The notes beneath the pieces were generated by a model, which was not told the origin of the DNA, ran no database searches, and was given only the letters and a program-made list of their open reading frames with translations. From a virus (Duplodnaviria; Heunggongvirae; Uroviricota; Caudoviricetes): 6,434 bases of DNA. The stretch lies in the IMG/VR virus record IMGVR_UViG_2703719368_000016. One strand, written 5' to 3'. Below are positions 1,665 through 6,337 of the stretch, one piece after another; the first letter of the stretch is position 1; every line of letters begins with the position of its first letter. A program made the position numbers and the translations under genes.

Positions 1665-2405
1665 TCACATACCCTGACGTCCAACGTTTGACCGCCAGCT
1701 CTCCCAGTTAAAATTCACCCAACGACCACCATTCATGGTCATACGGTCCATCACCCGATCTCCGAGGAGTGTGCTCATCGCTGCGTGATTCAGGTTCGTC
1801 AGCATTCCGACACTACGCATCGAAGCCGTTCTGCGGTCGACTATCTGGTTCAGCGTGACCTGCTCGTTGCGCGTATCCCGCTGCATGCCAATTTCATCAA
1901 GGACCAGAAGGTCAACTCCACAAAGCTCCTGTAAAAATTTTTCCCCGGACTGGCCGTTGTCGTAGCCGTCATGCAACACGCTCATGACATCGGACACGGT
2001 GACGATAATCACGCTTCTCCCCTTCGCCATCAGCCGATTGCCAATCGCTGCTGCCAGGTGATTTTTACCGGTACCAGGTTTACCGCTGAACACGAAGTTT
2101 GTACATCCGGTCATCAATTCATCGGCAATGGATTTCGCCTGGCTCAGAGCATGGCGCTGACCGTCGTTCTGCACCCGGTAGTTCCCGAATGAGCACTTCC
2201 TGTGAAGCGGCTGGATGCCCGCACGGTTCAGGATTTTTTCAACCCGCACCTGATGATTCAGGCGGTTAATCTCCTCGCTGCGTTTTCGTCCTTCAGCAAG
2301 TTGCCATTCCCGCCACTCCTCCACCGTCCGGTACGGTGGAACCGCCCCCTGTGGTGCAAGTCTGCGAATACGTTCAAGAACCCCAACTGCCGCAATGTTT
2401 TTCAT
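1665..2405 (-). CDS. DnaC-like helicase loader ATPase (AAA+, IstB/DnaC family), 246 aa; same size and position as Rac YdaV
   Basis: Walker A GKPGTGKNHLAAAIG and Walker B DLLVLDEIG are present. ATG at 2405-2403 with AGGGGG RBS overlapping the upstream stop; only 6 nt separate it from the initiator gene. This is the usual initiator-then-loader order of lambdoid replication modules. Confidence 0.85.
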   Translation of the reverse strand: MKNIAAVGVLERIRRLAPQGAVPPYRTVEEWREWQLAEGRKRSEEINRLNHQVRVEKILNRAGIQPLHRKCSFGNYRVQNDGQRHALSQAKSIADELMTGCTNFVFSGKPGTGKNHLAAAIGNRLMAKGRSVIIVTVSDVMSVLHDGYDNGQSGEKFLQELCGVDLLVLDEIGMQRDTRNEQVTLNQIVDRRTASMRSVGMLTNLNHAAMSTLLGDRVMDRMTMNGGRWVNFNWESWRSNVGRQGM

Positions 2406-2411
2406 GACACG

Positions 2412-3374
2412 TCACCCCCTGAATCCCGGCGGTATTTCAGTGTCCGGTTCAGAAATGTGATTCACGCAACGCTGCGCGGGCGAACGCCCCAGGCGGATAA
2501 CCAGTTCATCCCATTTTTCCCGGAGTTTTGCCGGACTCATGATGTTTTTTACCCAGAACGAATCCCGCTGGAGACGCCCAAACATTTCACAAATTTGTCT
2601 GTGAGTTCTGCCATCCAGCATCCGCATTGTCCGCACGTCATTGGCCCATGCAGTCCAGTTGGGTTCTTTCGGTCTCGTGATCTCGCCATCATCGCTGGCC
2701 GCCTGCTCGTAAAGACTCACGATTCGTCCCCAGATCCACTGTGCGCACACCAAATCTTCCTGACTTCCCCACTGGCGTTTTTTCGCACTGAACACAACCG
2801 CGTCAGGGTGTCGGGTTAAAAAATTCTGTTCAGCCGTCTGCGGGTCCGGTTGCGAAGCGTCCGGACAAGAAGATCTTTTATCTGACGGATCAGGTTTTAA
2901 TACTGACGGATCGGGGTCAATCATCGCCCCCCTAATCGGCAGTTTGTTATCAACAGTTGATCCATCAAAATTTGACGGGTCAACCGTTGAGGGGGCAATA
3001 TTTGACGGGTCAACTGTTAACGGGTCATTTTTTGCCGGGCTAATTTTTCTTTTCGGTTTATATGACTCACGCGCCGCCGCAGCAGCTGCTTCGAGTTTTT
3101 CCACATTAAGCCGATAGATATTGCTTACATTACGCCCACCGACCTTACGCTCTTCCTTCGTCAGCCAGCCCTCTTTCGCCAGTTCTGCAATAGCCGATTT
3201 CACTGTGGATTCACTTCTTGCACCGATCTGACGCCGGATAGTTTCAATGGCAGGCCATGACACGCCCTCGTCATTGCTGTAGTCTGCAAGACGGGCCATA
3301 ACCGCCACCCTGGATAAGATCATGCCGGTGAAGGCGCACCCTTCCCAGACAAGACCATGAAGCTTGCTGCTCAT
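2412..3374 (-). CDS. Phage replication initiator: N-terminal winged-HTH DNA-binding domain, Pro/Asp/Ser-rich linker, C-terminal domain
   Basis: The track ORF starts at GTG 3389; I prefer ATG 3374 (MSSKLHGLVW...) with GGGGG just upstream. The N-terminus (LADYSNDEGVSWPAIETIRRQIGARSESTVKSAIAELAKEGWL) matches the HTH pattern of phage replication initiators. The linker encodes TVDPSNIAPSTVDPSNFDGSTVDNK from the DNA iterons. It sits directly upstream of the DnaC-like gene. Confidence 0.75.
   Translation of the reverse strand: MSSKLHGLVWEGCAFTGMILSRVAVMARLADYSNDEGVSWPAIETIRRQIGARSESTVKSAIAELAKEGWLTKEERKVGGRNVSNIYRLNVEKLEAAAAAARESYKPKRKISPAKNDPLTVDPSNIAPSTVDPSNFDGSTVDNKLPIRGAMIDPDPSVLKPDPSDKRSSCPDASQPDPQTAEQNFLTRHPDAVVFSAKKRQWGSQEDLVCAQWIWGRIVSLYEQAASDDGEITRPKEPNWTAWANDVRTMRMLDGRTHRQICEMFGRLQRDSFWVKNIMSPAKLREKWDELVIRLGRSPAQRCVNHISEPDTEIPPGFRG
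2950..3066. repeat. Origin-like iteron cluster with adjacent AT-rich tract, embedded in the initiator gene linker
   Basis: Three near-palindromic sites TCAACnGTT(G/A)A at 2950-2960, 2980-2990 and 3010-3020, exactly 30 bp apart. Two 20-bp direct repeats TTTGACGGGTCAAC(C/T)GTT(G/A)A at 2971-2990 and 3001-3020. An AT-rich stretch follows at 3028-3066 (ttttttgccgggctaatttttcttttcggtttatatg). This parallels lambda ori lying inside gene O. Confidence 0.5.
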
Positions 3375-3396
3375 AAAACCCCCGAACACCGTGCTT

Positions 3397-3822
3397 TTAG
3401 TGCATCACCACAGCATTCCCTGCCGGGCCGCCGCGATTCATCTGGTCATACAAAACAACCGCTGACGCAACAAAATCATCGACATCCTTCACCAGCCGAT
3501 CCCTCCGTTCGACGATCTCACGGTAATATTCAGAACTGTGGCTGCGCATACGGGCCACCAGCAAAGGCGGCATCGCCTTTTCGATCGCCGGTAACAGAGC
3601 CTGCATTTTTTCAACAGCATCAGGGGTGTCTTTATCCAGCCAACGGAAAATTTTCTGGGTATTACGGGCCAGGGCTTCCGGATGGCTGTCGTCATACAGT
3701 TCCGGGAACGTCATTCCCAGCTCGAAATACGCTTTGGTAATTTTCGCAGCCGGTACTTTTTCGCCGTCCGGATGCGCCCAGACATTCATCGCCATGCGGA
3801 TGTGTTCATGCTTGATTTTCAT
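3397..3822 (-). CDS. ydaT: YdaT-like protein (reported CII-like regulator of Rac/CP-933P-type prophages), 141 aa
   Basis: Complete ORF, N-terminus MKIKHEHI..., C-terminus ...VVMH. Its ATG (3822-3820) overlaps the stop of the upstream Cro-like gene in an ATGA arrangement. Family assignment is from memory of YdaT and from gene order, not from a search. Confidence 0.6.
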   Translation of the reverse strand: MKIKHEHIRMAMNVWAHPDGEKVPAAKITKAYFELGMTFPELYDDSHPEALARNTQKIFRWLDKDTPDAVEKMQALLPAIEKAMPPLLVARMRSHSSEYYREIVERRDRLVKDVDDFVASAVVLYDQMNRGGPAGNAVVMH

Positions 3823-4121
3823 GAATCAACTCCATCAGATAAGCATGCACTACAATCACCTTCAGCATGAACTACATGTGTTTGCCCCAAACGAATGCCG
3901 CTCGCATACTCAGGCCAAATAAGCTCCCAATCATGGGGTCGTAGCTCCGCCCTACTTACTTGGCCTTCCGTCGCAGATTCGATCATAAGGGCGCGGGTTG
4001 GAGATATAGCTGTTCGTCCAGACGCCATTTGCGATAAGTAAGATGGCGATACACCAAGTCTGGCCGCGAATTTCTTAGCATCACCAACCCTTAATGATTT
4101 AATAAACTCTTTTAATGTCAT
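3819..4121 (-). CDS. ydaS: Cro-like HTH regulator of the YdaS family, 100 aa
   Basis: ATG at 4121-4119 with GAGGAAGG RBS (revcomp of 4123-4130). HTH segment AKKFAARLGVSPSYLSQMASGRTAISPTRAL followed by an ELRPhDW motif as I recall for YdaS. Divergent from the repressor gene across an operator-rich intergenic region. Confidence 0.65.
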   Translation of the reverse strand: MTLKEFIKSLRVGDAKKFAARLGVSPSYLSQMASGRTAISPTRALMIESATEGQVSRAELRPHDWELIWPEYASGIRLGQTHVVHAEGDCSACLSDGVDS

Positions 4122-4803: not shown

Positions 4804-5082
4804 ATGTTACCCGTGTTATGGCTTGAAAGCGCAGATACCGACCTAGATGATATAACTAGTTATATTGCTCGTTTCGACATAGATGCGGCTGAACGCTTAT
4901 GGCAGCGATTAAGGGGTTGTGTGCTGCCGTTATCCGAACATCCGTATTTATACCCACCAAGCGACAGAGTACCTGGCTTGCGTGAGATTGTAGCCCACCC
5001 TAACTATATAATTCTATACCGCGTAACAACATCAAGCGTTGAAGTAGTAAACGTGATCCACGCAAGACGCCAGTTTCCCTAA
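4804..5082 (+). CDS. parE2: ParE/RelE-superfamily toxin, 92 aa; ParE2-like
   Basis: ATG 4804, in frame with track ORF 4708..5082 but placed immediately after the antitoxin stop. The C-terminus ...HPNYIILYRVTTSSVEVVNVIHARRQFP matches the conserved ParE/RelE motif (Y-R-I/V ... I-x-R-V/I-x-H-x-R-R). The small, tightly coupled antitoxin-then-toxin order is typical of type II TA operons. Confidence 0.8.
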   Translation: MLPVLWLESADTDLDDITSYIARFDIDAAERLWQRLRGCVLPLSEHPYLYPPSDRVPGLREIVAHPNYIILYRVTTSSVEVVNVIHARRQFP

Positions 5083-5489: not shown

Positions 5490-5565
5490 NNNNNNNNNNN
5501 NNNNNNNNNNNNNNNNNNNNNNNNNNNNNNNNNNNNNNNNNNNNNNNNNNNNNNNNNNNNNNNNN
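5490..5565. other. Run of 76 N (assembly gap or masked sequence)
   Basis: Literal n characters in the sequence. Any ORF crossing it is unreliable and true spacing is unknown. Confidence 0.99.
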
Positions 5566-6279: not shown

Positions 6280-6337
6280 TTTCTGGTGACGTTTGGCGGT
6301 ATCAGTTTTACTCCGTGACTGCTCTGCCGCCCTTTTT
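6280..6337 (+). ncRNA. dicF: DicF-like small RNA with intrinsic terminator (the prophage sRNA known to repress ftsZ translation)
   Basis: The sequence TTTCTGGTGACGTTTGGCGGTATCAGTTTTACTCCGTGACTGCTCTGCCGCCCTTTTT matches my recollection of E. coli DicF. GGCGG (6295-6299) pairs with CCGCC (6327-6331), followed by a T5 run at 6333-6337. Context fits: downstream of a repressor-controlled rightward promoter and a small ORF. Ends are approximate. Confidence 0.55.

Follow-up and report, generated by a model that had tools for sequence, protein, structure and literature searches.

In bacteriophage lambda, the replication origin lies in the middle of the initiator gene O, between the segments encoding the DNA-binding N-terminal domain and the loader-binding C-terminal domain. 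Several tandem repeats with dyad symmetry, conserved as DNA, occupy codons 117-145 (gene nt 349-433) as 18-bp ATCCCTCAAAACGAGGGA repeats spaced 20-24 bp apart, and the least stable segment of the gene follows them in the direction of transcription. Other phages also carry gene-internal origins with the initiator repeats placed in the initiator coding sequence, such as the ori in gene 18 of P22 and oriL in gene 38 of SPP1, and these initiator families and repeat sequences differ from the ones described here. The present analysis concerns a window of 6,434 nt (the whole stretch of DNA studied) that matches a defective lambdoid prophage in Escherichia coli O157:H7 with 100% identity. Its minus strand carries a gene for an O-like replication initiator of 320 aa (2412-3374, ATG at 3374, taken from the list of open reading frames (ORFs) and annotated with 963 nt in RefSeq), within which a tandem array of short dyads probably constitutes the initiator-binding (iteron) part of a lambda-style origin embedded in the initiator's own gene.

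The initial annotation had pointed to the motif TCAACnGTT(G/A)A at 2950, 2980 and 3010, and within the window exact matches to TCAACNGTTRA are indeed confined to 2950-2960, 2980-2990 and 3010-3020. With at most one mismatch allowed, 8 strand-matches were counted against 0.88 expected, a number reached in none of 200 shuffles, and a looser dyad, TCAANNNTTGA, additionally matches 2965-2975 (4 matches vs 0.12 expected in the window). The two 20-bp direct repeats reported together with the motif, 2971-2990 and 3001-3020, are present as well and agree at 18 of 20 positions. The 30-bp spacing of the three sites is thus correct as described, but it reflects the alternation of two flavours of a shorter basic unit, which is 15 bp long and consists of TCAA-N3-TTGA followed by 4 bp. 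Tandem Repeats Finder reported both periods for 2950-3027 (30 bp with 2.3 copies and 15 bp with 5.2 copies). Five such units, candidate iterons defined by the dyad and tandem-repeat scans, cover 2946-3020 (minus strand; codons 119-143, gene nt 355-429) and read, on the minus strand, TTAACAGTTGACCCG (3020-3006), TCAAATATTGCCCCC (3005-2991), TCAACGGTTGACCCG (2990-2976), TCAAATTTTGATGGA (2975-2961) and TCAACTGTTGATAAC (2960-2946). A degenerate sixth unit, GCAAAAAATGACCCG (3021-3035, minus strand), lies in the same 15-bp register and is a weak match to the dyad. Across 24.5 kb of the prophage, no tandem array other than that at 2946-3020 exceeds two copies, and no iteron-like copies were found outside it except for one isolated dyad of the same pattern, TCAAGCGTTGA, at 5032-5042 inside the parE2 toxin gene, which may be due to chance. 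In E. coli strain CB6837, exactly one 15-bp unit is deleted from the array.

On the protein level, the array encodes the linker ...DPLTVDPSNIAPSTVDPSNFDGSTVDN... of the initiator, and both the translation and an AlphaFold2 model bear out the earlier description of this linker as lying between a winged helix-turn-helix domain and a C-terminal domain. The modeled N-terminal domain, the presumed reader of the iterons (aa 1-105; 3060-3374, minus strand), consists of helices, a beta-hairpin wing and a helix at residues 91-105, with a predicted local distance difference test score (pLDDT) of 75-89. Residues 112-201 have a pLDDT below 50, i.e. predicted disorder, and are followed by a helical C-terminal domain at aa ~205-295. 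Since the linker is predicted to be disordered, the DNA signal sits where the protein tolerates almost any sequence. Resampling of synonymous codons for the same peptide gave at least three dyads in only 0.04% of trials. This result is limited by the fact that duplicated copies are not independent, and the gene was therefore compared with its relatives.

A scan with one genome per species yielded 80 loci from many genera of the Enterobacterales, and in nearly all of their initiator genes the winged-helix domain is directly followed by 2-10 tandem 15-bp units. The main-clade unit reads TCA AAA TCT GAC nnn, and its codon usage departs sharply from that of the surrounding gene. Among 134 distinct units, the first Ser is encoded by TCA in 92% (vs 14% for Ser in the rest of these genes), the second (Ser3) by TCT in 76% (vs 8%), and Lys by AAA 78 times and by AAG 0 times, while the fifth codon varies at all three positions next to wobble positions that are fixed. 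The same picture emerged from a codon alignment of 79 distinct genes, where, at conserved residues, the most frequent codon accounted for a fraction of 0.90 in 39 columns (codons ~103-177), compared with 0.52 in the N-domain and 0.58 on the C-terminal side (Mann-Whitney P=1.9e-15). In pairwise comparisons, identical residues used the same codon in 40% of cases in the N-domain, 86% in the constrained stretch and 46% beyond it, and the value for this stretch was still 84% in the most diverged pairs. The full stretch under synonymous constraint corresponds to 2844-3068 of the window (minus strand), in and just before the predicted disordered linker; the DNA-level element thus extends ~100 bp further than the limits of 2950-3066 given in the initial annotation, to roughly 2844.

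The clade to which the window belongs shows the reverse side of this pattern, in that the peptide varies (PPNID, GLTVD, PTVEG, SNIEG; S/P/L, T/N/I) and the DNA dyad is retained; among its distinct units Val is GTT in 15 of 15 cases and Ile is ATT in 18 of 18. Because synonymous sites are nearly frozen, and because residues change while the dyad stays, the comparison of relatives indicates that the constraint acts on DNA and not on the peptide. The unit consensus also differs between N-domain clades, being TCAnAATCTGA in 72 genes and tCAAnnATTGA in the 10 genes of the window's clade, which is thin evidence consistent with a matching of reader and site. In some relatives the arrays are expanded to at least 10 units by super-repeats of 45 or 75 bp (locus L005 from Edwardsiella anguillarum, gene nt ~350-500, and locus L019 from Providencia), a pattern that shows recent amplification of multi-unit blocks.

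Downstream of the array in the direction of transcription lies a second conserved element, a block at 2862-2916 (minus strand) with the sequence GATCCGTCAGTATTAAAACCTGATCCGTCAGATAAAAGATCTTCTTGTCCGG, which was recognized by its codon conservation and is a candidate unwinding element and Dam/SeqA-sensitive region. Its family-wide consensus is GATCCGTCAGTA...GATCCrTCAGATAAAA...TCTTGTCC. At two positions of the block Asp is encoded by GAT in 150 of 150 cases, creating GATC, whereas Asp within the units is mostly GAC (172 of 204), and since GAT is used exclusively, the two GATC sites in GATCCGTCAG are invariant across the family. In the window, four GATC sites (2872, 2888, 2909 and 2959) fall within 88 bp, against ~0.3 expected. 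The least stable 40-mer of the initiator gene, 2867-2906 (68% A+T), is located in this block, 40 bp downstream of the array, and 95% of the 80 relatives have, within 130 nt after the array, a 40-mer that ranks in the lowest 5% of their gene by stability. The same stability metric recovers the known AT-rich region of lambda, and the 2862-2916 block aligns with residues encoded by that region.

The AT-rich tract of the initial annotation, 3028-3066, is a different sequence. It encodes a Lys/Arg-rich peptide, SYKPKRKISPAKN, and has only 67% A+T. Several findings speak against its assignment as the AT-rich part of an origin: the tract is upstream of the array, its DNA is not conserved within the window's clade, and the corresponding 40 nt upstream of the array in the 80 relatives have a median of 47% A+T and never fall within the least stable 5% of the gene. 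It ranks at about the 1.4th percentile of the least stable 30-mers in the window, where several intergenic stretches are more extreme. On this comparison, 3028-3066 is probably not the unwinding element. A relaxed DnaA-box pattern, TTTTCCACA, has a perfect match at 3097-3105 (plus strand), ~30 bp from the tract, and DnaA-box-like matches in general occur window-wide at chance frequency.

The initiator protein combines features that are familiar from lambda with others that are not. It matches PHROG 391 ('replication initiation O-like') over residues 1-320 (E=7e-115), and this full-length profile match together with the position of the gene between cII-like and helicase-loader genes places it in the PHROG 391/HTH_36 family. 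The only Pfam family matched is HTH_36 (PF13730, aa 30-76); Phage_rep_O (PF04492), which lambda O matches at 5.7e-36, was not found, and profile comparison and BLASTP detected no similarity between the N-terminal parts of the two proteins. A Foldseek search with the N-domain returned PadR/MarR/ArsR-type winged-helix proteins as best hits, all of them weak (E>=0.007), and a PDB sequence search with the same domain had no informative hit (TraM, E=0.23). The C-terminal half (aa 153-300; 2475-2916, minus strand), on the other hand, is homologous by BLASTP to lambda O aa 145-277 (34% identity, E=3e-25). This alignment starts right after the array, exactly where the AT-rich region of lambda begins; that region, located after iteron 4, codes for residues 145-158 of lambda O. 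A profile comparison of the mixed family alignment with lambda O reached a probability of only 9% because the C-terminal domains in that alignment are heterogeneous, and the homology was resolved by the pairwise BLASTP.

Heterogeneity is indeed a property of the family: behind one N-domain family and a common linker DNA, at least four C-terminal domains occur that have no relation to one another. A tail, ...(D/Y)x(E/K/A)IPxGFRG, is nevertheless common to initiators without other similarity in their C-terminal domains; it occupies the last ~16 codons (2412-2460 in the window; proteins P0003, P0042, P0053, P0057, P0060 and P0064) and may serve as a short motif that docks the loader or helicase and that can move separately from the rest of the domain. 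The gene directly downstream of the initiator (1665-2405, minus strand) encodes its partner, a DnaC-type helicase loader, as identified by Pfam (IstB_IS21, 1.5e-19), NCBIfam (PRK12377, 500 bits; DnaC, 309 bits) and PHROG (PHROG 50, 'DnaC-like helicase loader'). The initiator thus combines a C-terminal half homologous to the P-binding part of lambda O with a neighboring loader that is a close paralogue of DnaC and not of the lambda-P type. With its different N-domain and units, the locus follows the classical lambdoid pattern, in which the N-terminal half and the iterons are exchanged together and the C-terminal half is matched to the downstream machinery; here, though, the loader is of the DnaC type, and Sp12, the counterpart of this prophage in strain Sakai, is among the prophages with such loaders (PMC2669165).

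Compared with oriLambda, the locus has the same position in mid-gene between the DNA-binding and loader-binding domains, nearly the same codons for its dyad repeats (119-143 here vs 117-145), tandem dyad-symmetric units conserved as DNA (five to six here), and, though by a negligible margin in this gene, the least stable segment after the repeats in the direction of transcription. The differences concern the N-domain (HTH_36 vs Phage_rep_O), the repeats (contiguous 15-bp TCAA-N3-TTGA units vs spaced 18-bp repeats), the unstable segment (40 bp from the array and 68% A+T vs 4 bp and 78%) and the conserved GATC sites in the downstream block. We infer a gene-internal origin of the lambda type that differs in its DNA-binding domain and its iteron, and the gene-internal arrangement likened to that of lambda O in the initial annotation is supported by the DNA conservation among relatives and by the homology of the C-terminal half. 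The arrangement itself is textbook for lambda and was to be expected, and it had previously not been spelled out for this initiator family. In iteron origins of theta plasmids (RepA/RepE/pi-type), tandem repeats in variable copy number are likewise read by a winged-helix initiator beside an unwinding element, a reading that is only predicted here, but those repeats are usually intergenic, ~17-22 bp long and in helical phase, unlike the intragenic 15-bp period of this array, and the fold of the N-domain here matches only generic winged-helix proteins.

Origins of the oriLambda type also lie in gene O of lambda-type Stx phages such as 933W. Extra repeats lengthen the linker here, as is reported for Stx phages (PMC7466680); the 'P27' O protein of that study was considered and set aside, being of the lambda type and not the HTH_36 homologue of the phiP27 record. 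The Eru8/Eru11-type regions of Stx phages, in which a YdaT-like and an HTH_36 gene lie next to cI, have the same genes in the same order as the window (repressor, Cro-like, YdaT, HTH_36 initiator), although in the study of these regions the proteins were only classified and no origin was described (PMC8951638).

A working model patterned on oriLambda may be proposed, in which transcription from the rightward prophage promoter would supply both the initiator and the loader. Dimers of the winged-helix N-domain would then bind the 15-bp-spaced TCAA-N3-TTGA dyads at 2946-3020, and the resulting nucleoprotein complex would destabilize the GATC-bearing segment 2867-2906, 40-80 bp downstream, after which the lambda-O-like C-terminal domain would recruit the DnaC-type loader with host DnaB. 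Binding of the units by the N-domain, unwinding at 2867-2906 and the ability to fire in CP-933P, the E. coli EDL933 prophage represented by the window, are all presumed in this model.

Several points weigh against an origin at this locus. Neither a binding or origin-activity experiment nor a mapped origin was found for this initiator family in the literature searched (the review by Weigel and Seitz, 2006, may discuss such origins), and the replication of modules of this kind is stated to be not known (PMC8951638). A spacing of 15 bp is out of helical phase and tighter than the 20-24 bp of lambda, and the packing of dimers on it is hard to picture. The unwinding candidate has 68% A+T where lambda has 78%, and in CP-933P alone its 40-mer nearly ties with 3093-3132 (-46.9 vs -47.1 kcal/mol); because this margin is negligible, the assignment of 2867-2906 rests on family-wide conservation and positional homology. 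The covariation of reader and site comes from two clades only. Finally, Sp12 has apparently functional replication genes but showed no circularization or replication, and after mitomycin C only Sp5, Sp13 and Sp15 were amplified, not Sp12 (PMC2669165). The Sp12 repressor was scored as disrupted in the same study (PMC2669165), PaaR2 is the analogue of CI (PMC8630535), and the lack of amplification would be expected if PaaR2 is not cleaved in the SOS response. Two bolder readings are, taken jointly, doubtful on present evidence. In one, the contiguous array in its 15-bp register and the invariant GATC-bearing block would form a distinct origin architecture, with initiator dimers either alternating between the two faces of the helix or assembling into an unbroken filament, and with regulation by Dam/SeqA built into coding sequence; in the other, the origin would fire in situ in cells that are in the 'lytic' state.

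Among the other explanations, the one that survives best is that the array binds the initiator for autoregulation, copy control or incompatibility, by titration, handcuffing or a transcriptional roadblock, and that replication starts elsewhere in the module. In iteron plasmids, arrays of initiator sites are generally known to have these functions; origin iterons are not typically spaced at 15 bp, and the unwinding candidate is only moderately AT-rich. If this were so, however, it would have to be reconciled with the lack of any other tandem array of more than two copies in the 24.5 kb, where the single stray dyad is the one in parE2, and with a positional homology to oriLambda that includes the adjacent unstable segment, conserved family-wide. 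We regard a purely regulatory array as unlikely.

Less probable still, and in our view improbable, is that the linker is a boundary sequence exchanged by homologous recombination and that the repeats are products of slippage with no DNA-binding role. Such a view would account for one linker DNA being joined to four or more unrelated C-terminal domains, and for a unit number that ranges from 2 to 10 with one strain showing a clean deletion of a single unit. A recent transfer would keep all positions equally, whereas the fifth codon of the units is randomized and the neighboring wobbles are fixed; amino acids shift in the window's clade and the dyad is kept; and Asp is mostly GAC in the units but GAT in all 150 cases in the block. 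It is this pattern of fixed and free positions that argues for selection on a motif and not for a recombination junction.

A constraint imposed by something other than the initiator, namely sites for YdaT or a host protein, an RNA structure, an internal promoter or an overlapping frame, appears very improbable. YdaT recognizes TTGATT-N6-AATCAA and so shares TTGA/TCAA half-sites with the units (PMC9986795), and a 57-aa ORF on the plus strand (2944-3117) overlaps the array. With up to 3 mismatches allowed, however, the only sites fitting the YdaT motif are its operator at 3812-3829 and, with 3 mismatches, an unrelated one at 223-240; the half-sites of the array are spaced differently. The 57-aa ORF is not conserved, and of the 82 genes no more than 6 keep any given alternative frame open over the constrained 255 nt. 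A search of 2400-3450 revealed neither a sigma-70-like promoter nor a terminator, and Rfam gave no match at the array. The unit was also compared with the Fis consensus, and a Fis site was set aside, as the G/C of the unit lies at +/-6 and not at +/-7. The notion that a repeated peptide such as (S/T)VDPSN docks a partner and that the DNA has no function, suggested by repeats that are in frame and by a D-x-S pattern with a 5-residue period that recurs in the family, is hardly credible given that synonymous positions are the most conserved feature, that resampling with the peptide held constant so rarely returns the dyads (with the reservation on independence of the copies made above), and that the dyad persists where the clade's peptides vary.

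As for the genomic setting, the window belongs to CP-933P, a cryptic prophage of EDL933 whose Sakai counterpart Sp12 is identical (PMC8630535, PMC9986795), an assignment established by the presence of paaR2-paaA2-parE2, ydaS and ydaT and of the exact published YdaT operator. This high-affinity operator, OM, is present as an exact copy, TTGATTTTCATGAATCAA, at 3812-3829 at the ydaS/ydaT junction. The gene order on the minus strand is ydaS, ydaT, the initiator and the DnaC-type loader, with ydaS being the analogue of Cro and ydaT that of CII (PMC8630535). The initiator and loader genes of CP-933P are intact, and the integrase and other genes of the prophage are broken by insertion sequences. Elsewhere in the window, Rfam made its only significant match, a full-length gene for the antisense small RNA DicF at 6281-6332 (plus strand; RF00039, 76.7 bits vs a gathering score of 48, E=3.6e-16), which agrees with the dicB/ydfC neighborhood of the full prophage. 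A masked run of 76 N occupies 5490-5565 between parE2 and ydfC, and the ORFs listed across it are artefacts.

The module is widespread. The N-domain and array were found in 1518 of the 5426 complete genomes of E. coli, about 1365 of which carry the element with at least 99% identity, and almost always in one place per genome. A second copy of the initiator or origin able to act in trans was looked for in O157 genomes, which usually have the module in one place. The N-domain and array also occur in viable phages of Shigella, Klebsiella, Citrobacter and Yersinia, SfII, SfIV and phiNP being examples of viable phages of the family. The module corresponds to the Eru-type regions, termed 'non-lambdoid', in some Stx phages, the replication of which is uncharacterized according to PMC8951638.

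The combined results extend the lambda paradigm and do not challenge it. By placing the putative origin at a stretch of ~180 bp, they provide a testable site for studies on replication, incompatibility and escape replication, and for annotators they imply that ~75 codons of these genes are constrained as DNA and not as protein. Firing in situ in CP-933P is possible in principle, and is neither supported nor excluded by the data. An intact origin, initiator and loader in a prophage that cannot excise would allow over-replication in situ if derepressed. The immunity region of CP-933P is transcriptionally bistable (PMC8630535), and cells in the 'lytic' state would, if the proposal is true, fire the origin in place and locally amplify its neighbors, including the toxin-antitoxin genes and dicB/DicF.

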